From contig CAYNQE010000001.1 of the NCBI GenBank assembly GCA_964399345.1, positions 17,060 through 81,059 on the forward strand: 64,000 nucleotides of DNA. Direction: 5' to 3'. Origin of the DNA: an uncultured Candidatus Saccharibacteria bacterium. GTDB lineage: Bacteria; Patescibacteriota; Minisyncoccia; Phycocordibacterales; UBA2100. Below are positions 6,657-43,690 of this stretch, piece after piece (position 1 is the stretch's first letter; each line of letters begins with the position of its first letter). The notes below the pieces were generated by a model. It worked only from the letters and a program-made list of their open reading frames with translations. It did no database searches and was not told the DNA's origin. A program made the position numbers and the translations under genes.

Positions 6657-7705
6657 ATAACTTAATCAAAGTAATGATGCCAGCAGTAATTGCCTTTACT
6701 GTAGGTATTGGAATAACCCCGACAATTTCACATTACTTATATAAATACCGAGCTTGGAAAAAAGAAGGTGGAAAAACAGCCATGGACGGCAGTACTGCTG
6801 AAGTATTTAATTCATTACATAAAGAGAAAGAAAGAGAGGCTCCACGAATGGGAGGTTTGGTAATAATATTTAGTGCACTAATAACTATTCTTGGAATTTC
6901 ATTGGTTGCCTATATTTTCCCAAATGATTCTACTTCAAAATTAGATTTCTTCTCTCGGAGTCAAACCTGGATACCCGTTATGACATTATTCGCAGGAGCG
7001 CTAGTTGGATTTATCGACGACTTCTTAGAAATAAAAAGAAGGGGAGGACTTTCCCTAAGAAGGCGCCTACTTTTTGTACTCACACTTTCCTTTCTGATAG
7101 GTTGGTGGTTCCACAATAAGTTGGATATTACTTCTATAGGAATACCGTTTGATGATTCACTTGAAATAGGATGGCTTGTGATTCCTTTGTTTATGCTTAT
7201 TTCTCTTTCTATTTACGCAAGTGGAACAATTGACGGAATAGACGGTCTTTCAGGAGGAGTATTTGCAATGATTTTTTCAGCGTACTCTTTAATTGCCCTT
7301 GTTCAAGATCAAATAAACTTAGCTGCCTTTTCTGCAATGATTGTTGGTGCAATTCTTGCCTTCTTATGGTTTAACGTTCCGCCGGCACGATTTTATATGA
7401 CTGAGACTGGATCAATGGCACTCACTCTAACTCTCGCAACAATCGCCTTTATGACAGACTCACTAGGAGGAGGGATCGGAATTGCAGCACTGCCAATAAT
7501 TGGCTTCCTTCTTGTTGCAACAGTTGCAACAACTATTGCTCAATTACTTTCAAAAAAATTCCTCGGAAGAAAACTTCTTCGCGTTGCACCCCTTCATCAT
7601 CACTTTGAAGCAATTGGGTGGCCTTCTACTAAAGTTGTCATGAGGTACTGGATTCTAGGTGCTATGTTTGCTTTCTTTGGTGTGATTTTTGCACTCATTG
7701 GATAA
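6647..7705 (+). CDS. mraY: Phospho-N-acetylmuramoyl-pentapeptide transferase
   Basis: Polytopic membrane protein with GFIDDFLEIKRR and GTIDGIDGLSGG motifs. Sits in the dcw context before ftsW and murG. Confidence 0.85.
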   Translation: MELDNLIKVMMPAVIAFTVGIGITPTISHYLYKYRAWKKEGGKTAMDGSTAEVFNSLHKEKEREAPRMGGLVIIFSALITILGISLVAYIFPNDSTSKLDFFSRSQTWIPVMTLFAGALVGFIDDFLEIKRRGGLSLRRRLLFVLTLSFLIGWWFHNKLDITSIGIPFDDSLEIGWLVIPLFMLISLSIYASGTIDGIDGLSGGVFAMIFSAYSLIALVQDQINLAAFSAMIVGAILAFLWFNVPPARFYMTETGSMALTLTLATIAFMTDSLGGGIGIAALPIIGFLLVATVATTIAQLLSKKFLGRKLLRVAPLHHHFEAIGWPSTKVVMRYWILGAMFAFFGVIFALIG

Positions 7706-36989: not shown

Positions 36990-38498
36990 TTGGCGCTTAC
37001 TTTTAATATGAGCACAGAAAATTCAACAATTCGACCACCTGTTATTGCTATTATGGGACACGTAGACCACGGAAAGTCTGCTCTTTTGGACTACATACGA
37101 AAAACTAATGTGGTTGACTCTGAGGCCGGTGGAATTACCCAGCATGTATCAGCCTATGAAGTTGAACACGAACACGAAGGAGTGGTTAAAAAGATTACCT
37201 TCCTAGATACTCCAGGACACGAAGCTTTTGCGAAAATACGTGCAAGAGGGGCAAGTGCTGCTGACATTGCTATTTTAATAGTATCTGCCGAAGAAGGAGT
37301 GAAGCCTCAGACACTGGATGCTCTTGGCGCTATTAAAAAGTCAGGGACTCCTTACGTTGTTGCGATAAACAAAATCGACAAACCAAACGCCGATATAAAT
37401 AAGACAAAATCTAGCCTGATCGAAAACGAAGTATATATTGAAGGTATGGGTGGAGATATTCCCTTCAACGAAATTTCAGCAAAAACTGGAGCTGGTGTTG
37501 ATGAGCTTCTGGACACACTTCTACTAGTTGCAGAACTAGAAGAGCTTAAAGGAGATGCTTCATTACCTGCAGAAGGAGTAGTAATTGAGGCAAACCGAGA
37601 TTCTAAAAAGGGAGTTGCAGCTACTCTAATTATTAAAAACGGTACCCTCTCCTCTGGAGAATTCATTGTTGCAGAAAATGCTATGGCTCCCGTTCGTATC
37701 TTTGAGGACTTTGAGGGTAACACTATAAAAGAGGCTTCTTTTTCTAGCCCTGTGCAGATAATTGGATTTGATTCTCTTCCAAGCGTAGGAAGTACCTTCA
37801 GATCATACGAGCGTAAAAAAGATGCAGAGCTTGCTCGTTCTAATGTTTCCTCAAGAAATGCCGTTGTGTCCTTAGATGAGCATGATGAGCGTGTTTTAAT
37901 ACCTCTTGTAATAAAAGCAGACACAACGGGAACTCTTGAGGCTATATCACACGAGATAGAAAAGTTGGGAAATGAGCGAATACTGATAAGTACAATGATT
38001 GAAGGAGTTGGAAACCTCTCAGAAGGTGACGTTCAAACCTCCCTTGCCTCATCAAACGATTCCCTGCTAATTGCGTTCAACGTTGACGTTGATCCGGCTG
38101 CAAAAGATGTCCTTATGCAGAATGAAAAAGAAGTGTATTCTTTTAATATCATCTATAAATTAAGTGAGTGGCTCTCTGAGATTATAAAGGAAAGAACTCC
38201 AAAGCGTGAAATGGAAGAGGATACTGGCGTTGCTAAAATACTTATGTACTTCTCCGCAATGAAGAACAAATATGTTGTTGGCGGAAAAGTTAAATCTGGA
38301 GTAGTTAAAAAAGGATCTAAGGTTCGAATCAAACGAGGGGGTGAGATAATTGGGGCTGGATCTATTCTAGGACTACAAAGCGGAAAGCAAGCAACTGAAT
38401 CAATAGAAAAGGACGGAGAGTTTGGTGCACAAATTGAAAGTGATGTTCAAATAGAAGTTGGAGATTCGATTGAAGCATACGAGTTGGTAATAAAATAA
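36990..38498 (+). CDS. infB: Translation initiation factor IF-2 (short form lacking the long N-terminal region)
   Basis: G-domain [27 protein letters not shown], and the C-terminal beta-barrel domains. Confidence 0.85.
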
Positions 38499-38499
38499 T

Positions 38500-38820
38500 A
38501 TGCAGGGACAAAGACAACAAAAAGTTTCCGAACAAATCGCACATCTTGCGGCAGACTTTCTTGGACGAGAGTCTAATAGAGAGTCTCTAATAACTGTCAC
38601 GCGCGCTACTATTTCTCCTGACCTTTCAAGGGCTACAATATATCTAACAGTTCTACCTGATACTTACCAAGATGCTGCACTGGACTTTGCAAAAAGAAAA
38701 AGGACTGAATTTAGAACTTTTGTTAAAAAACACACAGAATTGCGAAGACTTCCGTACTTTGAATTTGAGATAGATTACGGTGAAAAAAATAGACAACACT
38801 TAGACACGTTGCTAATATAA
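38500..38820 (+). CDS. rbfA: Ribosome-binding factor A
   Basis: KH-like RbfA core (ITVTRATISPDLSRATIYLTVL). Conserved infB-rbfA order. Confidence 0.8.
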   Translation: MQGQRQQKVSEQIAHLAADFLGRESNRESLITVTRATISPDLSRATIYLTVLPDTYQDAALDFAKRKRTEFRTFVKKHTELRRLPYFEFEIDYGEKNRQHLDTLLI

Positions 38821-38826
38821 GTGCCT

Positions 38827-38898
38827 GGCTCGGTGGCGAAGTAGAAACGCTGGGGTTTGCAAAACCTCCATGCGCGGGTGCGATTCCCGCCCGAGCCT
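38827..38898 (+). tRNA. tRNA-Cys (anticodon GCA)
   Basis: Acceptor GGCTCGG/CCGAGCC. Anticodon stem GGGGT/ACCTC with loop TTGCAAA. T-arm GCGGG-TGCGATT-CCCGC. 72 nt. Confidence 0.7.
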
Positions 38899-38946
38899 CC
38901 TTAGATGGTAGAGGTATTGCAAAACTATTCCTTGTCGTCCTCTATT

Positions 38947-38955
38947 TGGTATAAT
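38947..38955 (+). promoter_or_regulatory. Extended -10 element TGgTATAAT. It ends 6 nt before the HNH ATG, so the transcript may be leaderless.
   Basis: TGnTATAAT match at 38947-38955. No Shine-Dalgarno between it and the ATG at 38962. Confidence 0.35.
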
Positions 38956-38961
38956 AAATAA

Positions 38962-39477
38962 ATGACTCGACGATCTTGGTCCGAGAAGGACCTAGAAACT
39001 GCAGTTAATGCCTCAACTAGCGTAAGGCAGGTGCTGAGAAAGCTTAACTTAAGAGAAGCGGGTGGTAATTATGTTCAAATCCGTAAATATCTAGATGAGT
39101 TGAATATAGACTCCTCGCACTTTAGAGGCAGGGGTTGGGCGCGAGGCCTTAAAGGTATTGGTTCCCCCAGGATTCCTCTAAAGGAAATATTGGTTAAAAA
39201 TAGTTCTTTCCAAAGTCACAAATTGAAAAATCGCTTATTTAAGGAAAACATAAAGTTCAGGGCTTGCGAAATGTGTAAGTGGGCTGAAATTTCCGAGGAT
39301 GGTCGTCAACCTTTGGAGCTTGACCATATCAACGGGGACAGGCATGATAATCGTCTACCTAACCTAAGAATTTTGTGCCCAAATTGTCATAGCTTGCAGT
39401 CAACGCATCGGGGTAGAAATATTGGTAGATGCCGAGGTGGTGGAGTTGGTAGACACGAGAGGCTTAAAACCTCTTGA
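38962..39477 (+). CDS. HNH homing endonuclease
   Basis: CEMCKW...LELDHINGDRHDNRLPNLRILCPNCHS is a canonical HNH-Zn motif. The last 47 nt and the stop codon lie inside tRNA-Leu(UAA). Confidence 0.8.
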   Translation: MTRRSWSEKDLETAVNASTSVRQVLRKLNLREAGGNYVQIRKYLDELNIDSSHFRGRGWARGLKGIGSPRIPLKEILVKNSSFQSHKLKNRLFKENIKFRACEMCKWAEISEDGRQPLELDHINGDRHDNRLPNLRILCPNCHSLQSTHRGRNIGRCRGGGVGRHERLKTS

Positions 39478-39516
39478 CCGTTTTTGGTCGCGCGGGTTCG
39501 AATCCCGCCCTCGGCA
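39431..39516 (+). tRNA. tRNA-Leu (anticodon TAA)
   Basis: Acceptor GCCGAGG/CCTCGGC. Anticodon stem AGAGG/CCTCT with loop CTTAAAA. Long variable arm. T-loop GGTTCGAATCC. Confidence 0.8.
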
Positions 39517-39763
39517 CCGAAACACAATTAAGCGGTCTTTGACCGACTTCTGGACTGTCCCCGATATACTGTACACACCCAGCTCCGCTTAGAGAGTTGG
39601 CGCAGAATTGCCACGTGCTCTCGCCGTGGGGAGTCCGCCACCGCAGTGGCGGACAATGGACAGCACGCGGAGCGTTCCGCTTTGTTAAAGTTAATCGCTC
39701 CGCGATTGTTTCTCAAAAAAAGTTCGAGCAAATGATATAATCTCCGCACCAAAATAAAACCTG

Positions 39764-39836
39764 TCCGCCCTCTAGGGCTCGAACCTAGGACAATCTCCTT
39801 AAGAGGGAGCTACTCTACCAACTGAGTTAAGGGCGG
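39764..39836 (-). tRNA. tRNA-Lys (anticodon CTT)
   Basis: 73-nt cloverleaf on the minus strand. D-arm ACTC-AGTTGGTA-GAGT. Anticodon loop CTCTTAA. T-arm CTAGG-TTCGAGC-CCTAG. Confidence 0.75.
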
Positions 39837-39935
39837 AAGTACCACATTCTAGTCTAAATTGATCGGTCTTTCAATACTATAAGAGTTTTCCAGTATTGGT
39901 AGTCACAAACTACCTTAGTATGCTAAACTACTAAT

Positions 39936-40571
39936 ATGGCTAAGGCACACAAGAAGATTAACATGGCCTGGTCTCCAAAATTATCTTACGCAATAGGAAT
40001 AATAGCCTCTGATGGTAATTTGTCCCCTGATAGAAGGCATATAAACATAACATCAAAAGATCTCTCTATTGTTGAAAGTTGTAAAAGCGCACTAGAGATA
40101 GATAACAAAATAGGAAGGAAGAGCCGCGAACGTTCTTCCGAAAAGGAATATTATGTCCTTCAATTTGGAAGTGTATTGTTTTATCAATTCTTGCTTGACC
40201 TGGGACTTCACCCAAACAAATCAAAAACACTGAAAAAAGTAGACGTTCCTAATGAATATTTCTCACATTTTTTACGAGGACTTATGAATGGTGATGGAAC
40301 AATAACATCCTTTAAGCATCCTTATAGCAAACTACTTCAAACAAGAATATCTTTGGCATCTGCAAGTCCGGATTTTCTAATCTGGATACACGGTAAAATA
40401 CGAAAACTTGTAAATATTGAAGGTGGTTGGATATACAATGCAAAAAAGAAAAATATCTCCATGCTTACATTTGGCAAAAGAGACACTATACTAGTCTGCA
40501 AATTTATGTATAATAAATCGGCTACATACAAGCTTATGCGTAAATATGATTGCATAGAAAAGTATCTTTAA
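39936..40571 (+). CDS. Double-motif (monomeric) LAGLIDADG homing endonuclease
   Basis: Two LAGLIDADG helices, YAIGIIASDGNL and HFLRGLMNGDGTI, about 100 aa apart. 211 aa. It fills the tRNA-Lys/tRNA-Leu spacer exactly. Confidence 0.8.
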   Translation: MAKAHKKINMAWSPKLSYAIGIIASDGNLSPDRRHINITSKDLSIVESCKSALEIDNKIGRKSRERSSEKEYYVLQFGSVLFYQFLLDLGLHPNKSKTLKKVDVPNEYFSHFLRGLMNGDGTITSFKHPYSKLLQTRISLASASPDFLIWIHGKIRKLVNIEGGWIYNAKKKNISMLTFGKRDTILVCKFMYNKSATYKLMRKYDCIEKYL

Positions 40572-40574
40572 GTT

Positions 40575-40659
40575 GGGCGAGTGGTGAAATTGGTATACAC
40601 GCGTGGTTTAGGACCACGTTCCGCAAGGAGTGGAGGTTCAAGTCCTCTCTCGCCCACCA
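40575..40659 (+). tRNA. tRNA-Leu (anticodon TAG), CCA encoded
   Basis: Acceptor GGGCGAG/CTCGCCC. Anticodon stem CGTGG/CCACG with loop TTTAGGA. Long variable arm. Ends ACCA. Confidence 0.8.
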
Positions 40660-40667
40660 GAATAGAA

Positions 40668-40812
40668 CTTGTCCGCCTACGCACTGGACGTGTCGCCTCG
40701 TTCCACTCAGCAACCTAAATACAAACTCATTCCCTTTCAACTTTTTACGACTCCCCCAGACCCCCACCGCAGGGAAAAGGAAAGGTGAGGAAATGGTTTG
40801 TTTTTTGGTTTA
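40668..40812 (+). repeat. Repeat A: about 145 bp left-flank copy of an inverted repeat pair bracketing the DGR. Begins 9 nt after tRNA-Leu(UAG).
   Basis: The reverse complement of 43553-43690 aligns base-for-base with this segment at about 80% identity, for example cgcctacgca[c/t]tggac...gttccactc...acccccaccgc[a/g]ggg...ggaaatg. Confidence 0.7.
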
Positions 40813-40827
40813 CTACTACGTAGTTAA

Positions 40828-41826
40828 CTACTTATTTAAATGTGTAGAAAGGGAGCGCGTGTACTCTTTTAACTCATAAGCATCTCCATGTCCGAGTAGT
40901 CCCAAGTATGATTGTAAAGTCCATTGTTTGCCATCAACTTCACTAATTCTCTTTAACATTCTTCGTTTTGTTACACTGCGTAGTACACGGTGAGTCGGAA
41001 AGTGAACCCAACCTAGAAAGTCAACTCCTGAGGAGAATGTTTCAATGGAAGTCTTTCGTTTATGCAATTTAAGTTGTAACTCTTCTTTTAGAAACGCACC
41101 TATGCACCGATGTATTTCCAACAACTCTTGTCTGTCTCGCGAAAGAATCACAAAATCGTCAGCATAACGAATATAATATTTAGCTTTCAGTTTGTGTTTA
41201 ACAAACTTATCAAGCTCATTCATATATACATTAACAAAGAGTTGCGAAGTGAGGTTACCAAGTGGTAATCCTTTTCTTTTCTCACCAGAGCTGAAACTCC
41301 CAACAATCTCTTCTAAAAGCGAAATTATATCTTTGTCAGAAATGTGTTTCTTCAAAATATTCATTAAGATAGAGTGGCCAATGGAGGCAAAGAATTTTCG
41401 TATATCGCTTTTAAATACCCAAACTGTTTTCGTGTTGTTCTTTGAAACTTTGTTTACAAAACTGCGAAGCCGATCAATTGCTCTGTGTGTCCCTTTGTTG
41501 TTTCTGCAAGAATATGAGTCAGCGATGAACGTATTGTCAAAATATGGATAGAGTTGTCTATATATTGCATGGTGAAATAGTCTGTCTCGCACGCTTGCCT
41601 TATGAATATTTCTTGGTTTGGGATCGGAAATGTTAAAAGCTTCGTATCTACCGTGCTTGTATGTTTTGTTTTTTAAATCTTGGTGTAATGAAAGTATGTT
41701 ATCCATTAGATGTAATTGGAACTCCTGCACGTCCTTACGTTTTCGTTTACCGTTTAAGAATTCCTTCCACGCACCGAGGAGATTTTCTACACAGATGATA
41801 TCATTGTAGGTATGAACAAATTTCAT
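40828..41826 (-). CDS. DGR-type reverse transcriptase
   Basis: RT motifs KHGRYEAFNISDPKPRNIHKASVRDRLFHHAI (domains 1-2) and YIRYADDFVIL (YADD catalytic box). 332 aa with no maturase or endonuclease domain. A TR/VR pair lies adjacent. Confidence 0.85.
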   Translation of the reverse strand: MKFVHTYNDIICVENLLGAWKEFLNGKRKRKDVQEFQLHLMDNILSLHQDLKNKTYKHGRYEAFNISDPKPRNIHKASVRDRLFHHAIYRQLYPYFDNTFIADSYSCRNNKGTHRAIDRLRSFVNKVSKNNTKTVWVFKSDIRKFFASIGHSILMNILKKHISDKDIISLLEEIVGSFSSGEKRKGLPLGNLTSQLFVNVYMNELDKFVKHKLKAKYYIRYADDFVILSRDRQELLEIHRCIGAFLKEELQLKLHKRKTSIETFSSGVDFLGWVHFPTHRVLRSVTKRRMLKRISEVDGKQWTLQSYLGLLGHGDAYELKEYTRSLSTHLNK

Positions 41827-41890
41827 CCTCAGAATCCTACCCCCCCCCTCAGCGATTTCGCAATCAAAGCTAATTCCCGTTATATTAAAA

Positions 41891-42223
41891 CTGAAAGATG
41901 TATATAGACTATGGCAGGAATATCTTGTTCATTTTCCGAAACAAAATCGCTATACCTTAGGGAGCAAAATTGATGAAGTATTCTTGATTGCTATAGAGTA
42001 CTGTTTTCTTGCCAGCTACGCCCCAAGGGATACTAAAATTATTCATCTCAACCGCTGTATTTCGCGAGTTGACTTGCTCAAACTTCTTTTGCAACTAGCG
42101 TGGGAAATACAAGCTTTAGATACTAAAAAATATACAGTACTTAGTGAGCAACTACAGGAAGTTGGAAGAATGCTTGGTGGGTGGAGAAAGGGGTTGGAAG
42201 TTAAAAACTCCCCACAAAAGTGA
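41891..42223 (+). CDS. avd: Avd-like accessory variability determinant (four-helix-bundle family). It is on the strand opposite the RT. The start is uncertain, with no in-frame ATG. A TTG at 41984 or CTG at 41891 could serve.
   Basis: In-frame translation ...KDVYRLWQEYLVHFPKQNRYTLGSKIDEVFLIAIEY...LLKLLLQLAWEIQALDTKKYTVLSEQLQEVGRMLGGWRKGL matches Avd/'23S rRNA intervening sequence protein' family features (WQ...FPK.E.Y.LGSQI and ...EV.KML.GL). Confidence 0.5.
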   Translation: MKDVYRLWQEYLVHFPKQNRYTLGSKIDEVFLIAIEYCFLASYAPRDTKIIHLNRCISRVDLLKLLLQLAWEIQALDTKKYTVLSEQLQEVGRMLGGWRKGLEVKNSPQK

Positions 42224-42235
42224 GGAGAAATATGT

Positions 42236-42351
42236 GCAGTAGCTAAAGACACGGTTGCCAGCATTCCAGACATTGCCGTCAAGCGGATTCGCATTGAAGT
42301 TCCACTTGGAATCGTCGGAGTTCCAGTTCGCGTTGACCACGAAGCCTTCAC
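42236..42351 (-). repeat. DGR template repeat (TR), 116 bp
   Basis: Collinear with VR 42686-42801 and no indels. 13 of 14 internal mismatches lie at TR positions that are A on the minus (coding-sense) strand. Confidence 0.8.
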
Positions 42352-42607
42352 TCGTAATGTGACCAATACCATCTGTACCACCACCCATTGAATATTCTCT
42401 GGGCTGTATATTATTCAGGACGTTATAAATCCTTCAGTATCAATCACCAACTGCATTTATTTTTTCAGAGATACAACAGATATACTCTTGGAGAAACCAT
42501 AGTCTAACTCCAACTCTGACATTTGTTTTACCTAAAGCTTCTTGCCCGAGCCATAACCAGAACATAATAAAAACTTCGTTTTGCAGTATAGCAAAATCCC
42601 TTATGTG

Positions 42608-42648
42608 TAAAAATAGCCCCTCAAACGCTTGAAGCGTCAAAGGGGCTA
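42608..42648 (-). terminator. Rho-independent terminator for the DGR target transcript
   Basis: Nested hairpin agcccct...acgcttgaagcgt...aggggct followed by an ATTTTTA run on the minus strand. Confidence 0.5.
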
Positions 42649-42655
42649 AGGGACA

Positions 42656-42678
42656 AAGGACTGAAGGACTCAGTCCTT
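42656..42678 (-). promoter_or_regulatory. DGR VR-proximal hairpin (9-bp stem, 5-nt loop), 4 nt downstream of the target stop codon
   Basis: aaggactga-aggac-tcagtcctt is perfectly self-complementary. Its position relative to the VR matches the hairpin/cruciform that supports retrohoming in characterised DGRs. Confidence 0.6.
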
Positions 42679-42682
42679 AGGT

Positions 42683-43288
42683 TCAGCAGTTGCTAAAGAC
42701 ACGGCTGCCAGCAGGCCAGACAAAGCCGTCAAGCGGACTCGCACTGAAGTACCACTTGGAACCGTCGGAGTCCCAGATCGCGATGAACACGAAGCCTCCA
42801 CGGGGCTTGTTCACGTCAGGAACGAAGAAGAACAAGTTAGCAGCATAGTTTTCAACCAACAGGTCGCCTTCCGCTTCGCCACTTGGCTGTAGAGCAGTTA
42901 AACTGTCCATATGTGCCAGTAGAACCCTGATATCGCGATATATGGATTCAGGATATTCCTTCATAATATCCCACTCTCTCGTTTGAGTTTCCAGTTTGCG
43001 ATAGTGAGTCGCGATTTCAGGAACTGAAGCAATCGGTTTCGCCACCGGCAAAATTAGACTTGCCATATTCGGCGACGACCAACGTCCTTCTTTGCGAGTC
43101 TTGAAAGCGGTTTTTGGCACAAACTTTTTGGTTCGTGCCGGAATGACTGCCCCTTTCTTGAGTTCGCCCAGCTGAGAGACGGCCACAATTTTTGTCCGCC
43201 CAGCAAGCAATGCGTCAATACCCACCTCTCCACCGTGGATATTCCAGACTGCCTGTATTCGGTCGGGAGTTTTGTTAGCTTTTGACAT
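42683..43288 (-). CDS. DGR target (variable) protein, 201 aa, with a C-terminal CLec-like variable region and no signal peptide
   Basis: Carries the VR. C-terminal W..DGSKW.F.......DG.VW.AGSRV pattern. GC content is visibly higher than the flanking genes. Confidence 0.7.
   Translation of the reverse strand: MSKANKTPDRIQAVWNIHGGEVGIDALLAGRTKIVAVSQLGELKKGAVIPARTKKFVPKTAFKTRKEGRWSSPNMASLILPVAKPIASVPEIATHYRKLETQTREWDIMKEYPESIYRDIRVLLAHMDSLTALQPSGEAEGDLLVENYAANLFFFVPDVNKPRGGFVFIAIWDSDGSKWYFSASPLDGFVWPAGSRVFSNC
42686..42801 (-). repeat. DGR variable repeat (VR) at the 3' end of the target gene
   Basis: Same alignment as listed for the TR. The VR encodes the C-terminal ...FVFIAIWDSDGSKWYFSASPLDGFVWPAGSRVFSNC. 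The TR in the same frame reads Asn-rich ...VVNANWNSDDSKWNFNANPLDGNVWNAGNRVFSYC. Confidence 0.8.
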
Positions 43289-43552
43289 TGTCTTCTCCTT
43301 TATCCGTATAGGATATTAAGGTACACCTTTGCCCGTATAGAACAAAAGTACTAGACCGTGTGGTCTTAGCTACAAACAACCGAAATTTCGGTAACTTGTA
43401 GCTAGGACCAACAAATATTATGTAAATGAACTTCATGCATATTATACCACACTTCGTGGAGTATGCAAGACTAACTTCGCAAATCACGAAAAACAGAGAG
43501 CTCGTACGCTTTGCGTATAAGAGAACTGTTTTGTAGTGACGCAGCGAACCCG

Positions 43553-43690
43553 AAAAACAAACACATTTCCTTCTTTCTTCTTTCCCCGCGGTGGGGGTAT
43601 GGGGGAAGCCGTAAAAAATTGAAAGGAAATGTTTTGTTTTTTGGTCGCCGAGTGGAACAAGGCGGTAAGTCCAATGCGTAGGCGTATGTT
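43553..43690 (-). repeat. Repeat B: right-flank inverted copy of repeat A. It contains an internal 20-bp-arm palindrome (43559-43580 and 43625-43644).
   Basis: Same alignment as listed for repeat A. Arms cccgaaaaacaaacacatttcc and ggaaatgttttgttttttgg are near-perfect reverse complements. Confidence 0.7.

Follow-up and report, generated by a model that had tools for sequence, protein, structure and literature searches.

Two probable free-standing homing-endonuclease cassettes on the 5' edges of tRNA-Leu genes in a conserved tRNA cluster of the candidate phyla radiation

We analyzed a 64,000-nucleotide stretch of DNA from an uncultured Candidatus Saccharibacteria bacterium (assembly GCA_964399345.1, contig CAYNQE010000001.1, positions 17,060 to 81,059), hereafter called the window and numbered from its first letter. 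A cluster of four tRNA genes in the window houses two genes for homing endonucleases, one of the HNH and one of the LAGLIDADG type. We conclude that the two are probably independent, free-standing homing-endonuclease cassettes, each sitting on the 5' edge of a tRNA-Leu gene, in a tRNA cluster that is conserved in the candidate phyla radiation (CPR). The first-pass annotation, made from the sequence alone, had placed the two genes in a CPR-like genome, in accord with the source names of their homologues, which include Paceibacterota and Patescibacteria. It had also regarded the arrangement as an unusual feature of one genome. That view did not survive comparison, as both families turned out to be tied to the 5' edge of tRNA-Leu in hundreds of genomes. 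The pseudo-tRNA 5' fragments and promoters upstream of both open reading frames (ORFs) had been missed; with them, the cassettes are physically, and probably functionally, built around tRNA-Leu rather than being endonuclease genes parked in spacers. The significance of the arrangement lies at the level of the two families, in a CPR-wide distribution and a distinctive pseudo-tRNA promoter design.

ARAGORN and Rfam agreed on four uninterrupted tRNA genes in the cluster. These are tRNA-Cys(GCA) at 38827-38900 (54.1 bits in Rfam), tRNA-Leu(UAA) at 39431-39518 (62.3 bits) and tRNA-Leu(UAG) at 40575-40659 (56.2 bits) on the plus strand, and tRNA-Lys(CUU) at 39763-39836 (60.4 bits) on the minus strand; the Rfam gathering score for tRNA is 29 bits, as against 54-62 bits here. 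The same four intact genes had been described before, and the 5' end of tRNA-Leu(UAA) falls at 39431, not downstream of 39477. Between 36000 and 44000, Rfam detected no group I or group II intron, nor any RNA family beyond the four tRNAs, at E ≤ 1. With complete tRNAs on their flanks, no intron model at that threshold, and starts and promoters of their own, the endonuclease genes are free-standing and not intron-encoded, as the first-pass annotation had held.

The HNH gene (38962-39477, plus strand) encodes 171 amino acids. Its ATG lies 61 nucleotides (nt) after tRNA-Cys by the ARAGORN boundary, or 63 nt by the Rfam boundary, so the earlier spacing of 64 nt was right only approximately; its TGA stop lies 47 nt inside tRNA-Leu(UAA), exactly as had been noted. 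The protein matches the phage family phrog_10822, "HNH endonuclease" (E = 1.5e-41, residues 2-156), and marginally the Pfam HNH profile (21.7 bits, cut-off 21.4), which upholds its assignment. Of the columns in an alignment of 25 family members, 47 are invariant, and none of these is altered in the window protein. The HNH motif residues D121-H122, N130/N134 and H143 are invariant, as are the cysteines of two zinc-binding CxxC pairs (C102, C105, C139 and C142), giving a core of the form CxxC...HNH...CxxCH that follows an N-terminal three-helix domain. An AlphaFold model (predicted local distance difference test score, pLDDT, 78.5) shows this domain and a beta-beta-alpha core, whose strands (119-122 and 135-138) precede a helix (140-144). 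The three-helix domain (residues 8-46, pLDDT about 90), a candidate DNA-binding module, is duplicated in some relatives, and a fold search returned only weak helix-turn-helix or Myb-like matches (E > 1). Sequence and fold searches with the HNH protein yielded no closer solved structure, only weak matches to McrA, Cap5 and Gme-HNH (E ≥ 0.04). Residues 150-171, which include the tail encoded within the tRNA, are predicted to be disordered (pLDDT < 50); this tail, specified by the last 47 nt of the ORF, is absent from homologues that end before the tRNA.

The LAGLIDADG gene (39936-40571, plus strand) encodes 211 amino acids, starts 99 nt from tRNA-Lys (100 nt in the earlier account, again close but inexact) and ends 3 nt before tRNA-Leu(UAG), as previously stated. 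It matches Pfam LAGLIDADG_3 in two stretches (34.6 bits, cut-off 22.5), in line with its first assignment, and phrog_4645 (E = 4e-29). The family alignment matches PDB entry 2dch, a "putative homing endonuclease" (E = 6e-10, residues 16-156), which we take to be I-Tsp061I, an archaeal LAGLIDADG enzyme encoded in an rRNA intron. The two motifs, IGIIASDGNLS and FLRGLMNGDGTI, end in D26-G27 and D120-G121, all invariant in 27 family members. Both catalytic aspartates are thus kept in one chain, as expected of the monomeric double-motif enzyme originally proposed. Judged by these residues, both window proteins appear to be intact, functional nucleases. The earlier statement that both genes exceed the genome in GC content applies, and only slightly, to the HNH ORF (43.6% versus 40.1% for the window), and is wrong for the LAGLIDADG ORF (34.3%); foreign base composition as evidence of mobility was dropped as unsupported by these values.

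We evaluated how strictly each family is linked to its tRNA; the loci compared are cited by L numbers where they need to be told apart. The HNH family comprised 3,653 matches in the protein collection, the best 120 of which (56-79% identity) were nearly all from CPR bins. When one genome per species was scanned, at least 435 genomes contained relatives. Among the best 80 loci, which were inspected, tRNA-Leu(UAA) was directly 3' of the HNH gene in all 80; it was seen outright in 79, and in the remaining one (L079) it is present but broken by a masked run of N. Every other genomic context that we read also had the HNH gene directly 5' of tRNA-Leu(UAA). The loci span the Parcubacteria and Microgenomates groups, Saccharibacteria, Peregrinibacteria, Berkelbacteria and Doudnabacteria. 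Upstream genes varied, and included type IV secretion system (T4SS) pilins, a beta-lactamase-fold gene, RNase HII, rbfA and transfer-messenger RNA (tmRNA); about half of the related loci have tRNA-Cys, the upstream neighbor in the window, no more than 250 nt upstream. The HNH stop codon ranged from 31 nt upstream of the first tRNA nucleotide to 102 nt inside the tRNA, and the ORF overlapped the tRNA in 47 of 88 loci, most commonly by 47 nt. Seemingly conserved C-terminal tails of the family (GGG.GRH..LK) are translated tRNA.

Two further observations were made on HNH loci. Cassettes of HNH and tRNA-Leu(UAA) with 62-68% protein identity occurred in bins labeled Elusimicrobia, Methylomirabilis and Nevskiaceae (L020, L036, L039, L056 and L021 are among these oddly labeled bins); the labels are unverified, and the finding reflects either cross-phylum transfer or mis-binning. 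In L003, whose HNH protein is the closest relative of that in the window (79% identity), a short ORF for an IS200/IS605-type Y1 transposase (6756-7031) directly follows the HNH and tRNA-Leu(UAA) pair.

The LAGLIDADG family showed a similar linkage to other leucine isoacceptors. At least 533 relatives were found in a metagenome scan, and the best 80 loci were inspected. In 72 of them a tRNA gene lay directly downstream, from -95 to +145 nt relative to the stop codon, and tRNA-Leu accounted for 69 of the 72: Leu(UAG) in 43, Leu(GAG) in 20 and Leu(CAG) in 6, the other three being Phe(GAA). Five of the eight loci with no adjoining tRNA stop at a contig edge. The ORF overlapped the tRNA in 44 of the 72 loci. 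The subfamily to which the window protein belongs is partnered by tRNA-Leu(UAG).

Upstream of the HNH gene we recognized a pseudo-copy fragment of the 5' part of tRNA-Leu, designated R, and an inverted copy of it, R'. In the window, the R box (TGGTAGAGG, 38906-38914, plus strand) resembles the D-loop and D-stem of tRNA-Leu, the counterpart in the adjacent gene being TGGTAGACAC. R and its inverted copy R' (CCTCTAtt, 38939-38946) are, respectively, the 5' and 3' arms of a hairpin, and R' lies directly upstream of an extended -10 element, TGgTATAAT (38947-38955), located 6 nt before the ATG. The promoter scanner skipped this site because it has no -35 element; we identified it by reading the sequence itself. 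No Shine-Dalgarno sequence precedes the ATG. On the -10 element and on the lack of a ribosome-binding site the first-pass annotation was accurate. This arrangement predicts a leaderless HNH mRNA that would read on into tRNA-Leu(UAA).

The same elements recur across the family. Counts were made in 86 HNH and 78 LAGLIDADG loci and compared with shuffled sequences. In some HNH loci R is a clean copy of tRNA-Leu positions 1 to about 26 (e.g., gcccgggtggtggaatggtatacac in L087); the part that usually survives is the D-loop box GGTAnAC, present (counted as GGYAnAC) in 44 of 86 loci versus 2.3 in shuffles. R' (GTnTACC) followed R by 20-30 nt in 40 loci (1.7 in shuffles), and R/R' hairpins with at least 8 of 9 pairs formed in 25 (5.3 in shuffles); arm positions 5 and 8 vary in a compensatory manner. 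A -10-like hexamer ended 5-9 nt before the ATG in 41 loci (4.5 in shuffles). A second layout places the -10 within the hairpin loop, with R' touching the ATG. Shine-Dalgarno motifs were not enriched (3 loci versus 5.3 in shuffles). As neither cassette of the window has a Shine-Dalgarno sequence, both endonuclease mRNAs are probably leaderless. The family-wide position of the -10, together with the lack of Shine-Dalgarno enrichment, supports leaderless or near-leaderless HNH mRNAs and lends weight to what had been raised as a possibility for the window gene.

In the LAGLIDADG cassette, R (ATTGGTAGTCACAAACTACCTTAG, 39895-39918, plus strand) is a pseudo-copy of tRNA-Leu(UAG) extending from the D-loop up to and including the anticodon TAG. 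The TTGGTA within it (39896-39901) occupies the place of a -35 element. The pseudo-anticodon is followed immediately by a -10-like hexamer, TATGCT (39919-39924), at a distance of 17 nt from the preceding TTGGTA and of 11 nt from the ATG that follows. In the family, R is followed at once by TATAAT, and the D-loop sequence TTGGYA 17 nt upstream reads as the -35. An anticodon followed by TAnnnT was found in 20 of 78 loci (1.2 in shuffles), and TTGGYA-N16-18-TAnnnT in 15 (0.4 in shuffles). The upstream neighbor of this cassette in the window is tRNA-Lys. Both cassettes share a three-part design: a sigma-70-type promoter fused with a pseudo-copy of the 5' part of tRNA-Leu, an ORF that has no Shine-Dalgarno sequence and starts a few nucleotides after the -10, and an abutting or overlapping tRNA-Leu gene. 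From the extent of R, the segment of tRNA-Leu between the D-loop and the anticodon may be the site of the LAGLIDADG enzyme.

The end point of R is fixed with respect to the tRNA, at about position 26 in HNH cassettes and at 36 in LAGLIDADG cassettes. The latter is exactly at the anticodon, the place at which group I introns enter tRNA genes, and group I introns, some with HNH genes and with insertions centered on the anticodon loop, are common in the tRNA genes of Patescibacteria (PMC13011429). The cassettes could on these grounds be remnants of introns in the anticodon loop of tRNA-Leu, with R as the old 5' exon. We consider such an origin highly improbable: R in HNH cassettes does not end at the intron site, the downstream tRNA is complete with its own 5' half and is not a 3' exon, the promoter and ORF that follow R leave little room for a ribozyme core, and no group I signal was seen in the Rfam search described above.

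A further question is how R came to be where it is. Among LAGLIDADG loci, the anticodon in R matched that of the downstream tRNA in 39 and mismatched it in 5. Long R fragments were closer to the tRNA-Leu genes of other genomes than to those of their own, which had a median rank of 25 among 85. Similarity of tRNA-Leu positions 1-33 was correlated with HNH similarity (r = 0.19, p = 0.024, a weak signal) and not with that of InfB (r = -0.12), and the 3' part of the tRNA tracked neither protein. At L021, the cassette and its intact tRNA stand between two tRNA fragments, one 5' (gccgagg...) and one 3' (...ccctcggcaccc). The acceptor strands of these fragments are complementary to one another and not to those of the tRNA that they enclose, and therefore a whole tRNA arrived with the cassette at this locus. 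An ungapped comparison of R with its own tRNA was set aside, being confounded by a 1-nt offset.

These data raise the alternative that the mobile unit is the endonuclease gene together with its own tRNA-Leu, either complete or as a 5' half. The resident tRNA-Leu would be cut, R would be its 5' fragment left behind as a scar, and the incoming tRNA would be installed downstream, so that an essential gene could be targeted without an intron or intein. The match of the R anticodon to the local isoacceptor, the fixed end of R, the rank of long R fragments, the HNH-tracking 5' part, the L021 fragments and the physical overlap of ORF and tRNA all speak for it. We nevertheless regard it as rather unlikely. 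Remnants of the 3' part of a displaced tRNA after the intact tRNA-Leu were rare, L021 being the only convincing case, and the linked tRNA-Leu(UAG) genes resemble unlinked ones of similar genomes. The Mantel signal was weak and was one of several tests. Finally, conservation among R elements is on a par with that among the tRNAs (71% versus 72%), and R has an AT-rich segment of its own, as would befit a functional promoter and not a decaying scar. We conclude that R derives from the target tRNA and is retained today for some function.

The cluster itself, in the order Cys, Leu(UAA), Lys(CUU), Leu(UAG), was also found without either endonuclease gene. The search for such loci had been proposed with the first-pass annotation, and it returned short, empty spacers. 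In clusters selected by their LAGLIDADG gene, HNH was present in 4, including the window, and absent from 8, in which the spacer between Cys and Leu(UAA) measured 1-110 nt. Conversely, LAGLIDADG was absent from all 10 HNH-selected clusters, with spacers of 29-163 nt between Lys and Leu(UAG); none of these 10 spacers contained R or an R-only scar. L114, which has HNH, was compared with L120, which lacks it. Their flanks are 77-82% identical, and the cassette replaces a 30-nt spacer.

The divergence of the HNH protein is uncoupled from that of its hosts. In 32 genomes with infB beside the cluster (496 pairs), the identities of HNH and InfB were uncorrelated (Mantel r = 0.01, p = 0.42), and in 31 of 31 comparisons with the window HNH was the better conserved of the two. 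This uncoupling fits horizontal spread. The median pairwise identity of HNH (64%) exceeds that of InfB, and such conservation could alternatively mean that HNH, and perhaps LAGLIDADG, is no longer selfish and has become a host factor, for example a regulator of the tRNA-Leu operon acting at the tRNA-like operator or a nuclease acting on tRNA-Leu transcripts. The very wide distribution of the HNH family, its strict co-location with one tRNA and the tRNA-like boxes over the promoter would all suit such a role, and LAGLIDADG proteins are known to moonlight as maturases. Domestication is nonetheless unlikely, given that HNH is missing from 8 of 12 comparable clusters, does not co-diverge with the host and has close relatives in phage tRNA clusters. 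Both proteins keep full sets of catalytic residues, and there is no intron for a maturase to assist.

Returning to homing cassettes as the preferred explanation, we propose the following mechanism. The enzyme would recognize and cut the tRNA-Leu gene, between the D-arm and the anticodon region, in a chromosome that lacks the endonuclease, and the break would be repaired from the endonuclease-bearing copy. Homology arms would be at hand even between distant species, with R and often tRNA-Cys or tRNA-Lys on the left and the intact tRNA-Leu on the right. The cassette's own promoter would yield a leaderless mRNA that continues into the tRNA, and cleavage by RNase P at the tRNA 5' end would separate the endonuclease mRNA from the tRNA. 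Where the ORF overlaps the tRNA, by 47 nt in the window, RNase P would remove the stop codon and create a non-stop mRNA, so that endonuclease output would be kept low. R and R', lying over the promoter, might be an operator that resembles the target, or a hairpin by which read-through transcripts are silenced.

Several points weigh against this explanation. Cleavage, the target site and homing are things that we infer from sequence patterns. The main problem is the immunity of the endonuclease-bearing allele, because an intact tRNA-Leu persists beside the endonuclease and a target wholly inside the tRNA would survive insertion; no immunizing difference was found between endonuclease-linked and unlinked tRNA-Leu(UAG) genes. 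Whatever the host distance, HNH pairwise identity remains on a plateau of about 64%, a pattern that strong constraint could explain instead of transfer. In Pfam, the window protein only just reaches the cut-off of the HNH profile. Among the loci compared there was no pair of close relatives (>90% identity) of which one has the endonuclease and the other does not. L013 and L014 were considered as an isogenic pair, as they encode an identical LAGLIDADG protein and only L013 has the HNH gene. They were rejected: the two are 99.2% identical from tRNA-Lys onward and only 76% identical in infB-rbfA, so that the apparent pair represents either a recombination breakpoint in the cluster or a chimeric assembly.

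We also put forward, tentatively, a broader interpretation. Besides introns and inteins, the cassettes may exemplify a third route by which a homing endonuclease exploits a gene that is both essential and highly conserved, namely insertion at or within tRNA-Leu that duplicates or carries along its 5' part, so that the tRNA gene stays intact. The orphan copy would then become a promoter or operator and a homology arm. Because tRNA-Leu is nearly invariant, the two unrelated families might act as gene drives across lineages throughout the CPR, exchanging with phages.

Other features of the region are given here for completeness. The cluster is preceded by infB (36990-38498) and rbfA (38500-38820). 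The orientation of tRNA-Lys is flipped relative to most related clusters, and L010, L011 and L096 share the flipped order. Between tRNA-Leu(UAA) and tRNA-Lys lies a GC-rich (51%) spacer of 244 nt (39519-39762) that folds far better than shuffled sequences on the plus strand (z = -5.1) and holds a perfect 9-bp stem, GTCCGCCAC/GTGGCGGAC. It had no Rfam match and no homologue in any fetched locus, and it belongs to neither cassette in other genomes; L096, with the same gene order as the window, has only about 24 nt at this place. Pseudo 5' fragments of tRNA-Lys (gcgcccatagctgttttggtag...) are repeated before the real tRNA-Lys in L114 (about 1010-1120), L120 (about 2750-2830), L068, L076 and L077, with no endonuclease gene, and may be scars of another tRNA-targeting element. 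The contigs of L015 and L013 are 99.8% identical, and an 87-nt type II tRNA was called Val(tac) in the former (20-106) and Leu(taa) in the latter (2632-2718); the apparent cause is either a single change in the anticodon of a leucine-type tRNA or an error in sequencing.

Downstream of the cluster is a diversity-generating retroelement (DGR; region 40828-43288), starting 15 nt after tRNA-Leu(UAG). It comprises a reverse transcriptase gene (40828-41826, minus strand; RVT_1, E = 1e-25), a bAvd-like ORF (about 41873-42223, plus strand; PF22296, 53 bits) with no ATG, GTG or TTG start, a template repeat (42236-42351) and a variable repeat (42686-42801) at the 3' end of an ORF on the minus strand (42683-43288) that had no Pfam match. 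The repeats differ at 15 positions, 13 of them template adenines. The whole retroelement is bracketed by imperfect inverted repeats of 138 nt (40674-40811 and 43547-43684), 72% identical without gaps and 82% by BLAST, whose mismatches show no adenine bias and which had no Rfam match and no homologue in any fetched locus. ARAGORN also called a permuted tmRNA (40567-41163); we rejected it as a probable false positive because it overlaps tRNA-Leu(UAG) and the reverse transcriptase gene and has no Rfam match. Farther downstream are genes for small T4SS-pilin-like proteins (PF18895; 44043-44387 and neighboring minus-strand ORFs), which also flank the tRNA cluster in L003, L010, L012 and L013.

Free-standing homing endonucleases of tRNA clusters have hitherto been treated as a rarity of a few phages. 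Here, two unrelated families, with a common cassette design, are tied to one tRNA identity across a radiation of bacteria with tiny genomes. They link CPR chromosomes to phage gene pools, probably give rise to recombination breakpoints and mosaicism at the tRNA clusters of the CPR, and provide a testable case of a selfish nuclease on an essential gene without an intron. They would also be a source of natural enzymes whose target, the tRNA-Leu genes, is predictable and universally conserved. For annotation they carry a warning, as gene callers will be confused by pseudo-tRNA fragments and by ORFs that extend into tRNAs.

Among known systems, the group I introns of Patescibacteria (PMC13011429) involve the same phylum, tRNA genes and HNH-family endonucleases. 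Those introns interrupt their tRNAs, whereas the tRNAs of the window are intact and the endonuclease genes lie outside them. That 2026 study does not describe free-standing endonucleases 5' of tRNA-Leu, and no description of CPR endonucleases docked at tRNA-Leu was found in the literature searched. The LAGLIDADG protein has the same monomeric two-motif architecture as I-Tsp061I, of the I-DmoI/I-CreI fold; I-Tsp061I is intron-encoded, in contrast to the free-standing, tRNA-Leu-linked family of the window. A precedent for the proposed control of expression is found in phage T4. The operator bound by I-TevI is similar to the homing site of this enzyme and overlaps the promoter of its gene, and T4 endonuclease genes have hairpins by which read-through transcripts are silenced, whereas mRNAs started from promoters at the hairpin can be translated (PMC2988022). 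The homing-site-like operator and hairpin-plus-promoter control of I-TevI/II/III match the R/R' layout of the window cassettes. However, these enzymes are intron-encoded, and I-TevI and I-TevII are of the GIY-YIG type; the operator role in the window is suggested by resemblance of sequence.

Known counterparts of the HNH gene are found in phages. Phage records contained 234 relatives with 31-53% identity to the window protein, as compared with 54-79% among CPR members. The phage T5 genes for F-TflI/II/IV, hegA and the members of phrog_10822 belong to the same sequence family and, like the window gene, lie inside tRNA clusters. T5 hegA, in the tRNA region of that phage, is 44% identical over the catalytic core. 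In Citrobacter phage Michonne, gp141 (36% identical over 87% of the protein) is encoded in a tRNA cluster and ends 1 nt before tRNA-Leu(UAG). The hosts differ, as the phage relatives come from phages of Proteobacteria, Cyanobacteria and Actinobacteria and the window gene from a CPR chromosome. So does the side of the tRNA: most relatives on viral contigs are downstream of tRNA-Leu(UAA), whereas the CPR genes are upstream of it. In about 30 of 56 distinct IMG/VR loci the HNH gene was 47-70 nt downstream of an intact tRNA-Leu(UAA), and these spacers hold a GGTAAAC/GTTTACC-type hairpin with a T4-late-promoter-like sequence, TATAAATA, in the loop.

T4 SegB, a free-standing GIY-YIG endonuclease encoded between tRNA genes, has a recognition site that includes a conserved tRNA-gene motif and spreads together with the flanking tRNA genes; as the end of its ORF is fused to the next tRNA, a cut between the last sense codon and the stop codon has been proposed to occur during maturation of tRNA-Arg (PMC2330249). 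The HNH gene of the window likewise stands free between tRNA genes, with the end of its ORF fused to a tRNA. SegB differs in being phage-borne and of the GIY-YIG fold, the window families being HNH and LAGLIDADG on a cellular chromosome. It recognizes the T-psi-C motif of many tRNAs, whereas the window families are tied to one tRNA identity, and neither a pseudo-tRNA fragment nor a promoter has been described upstream of it, while the window cassettes have both. The CPR cassettes are best read as the cellular counterpart of phage tRNA-cluster endonucleases such as T4 SegB and the F-Tfl enzymes of T5.

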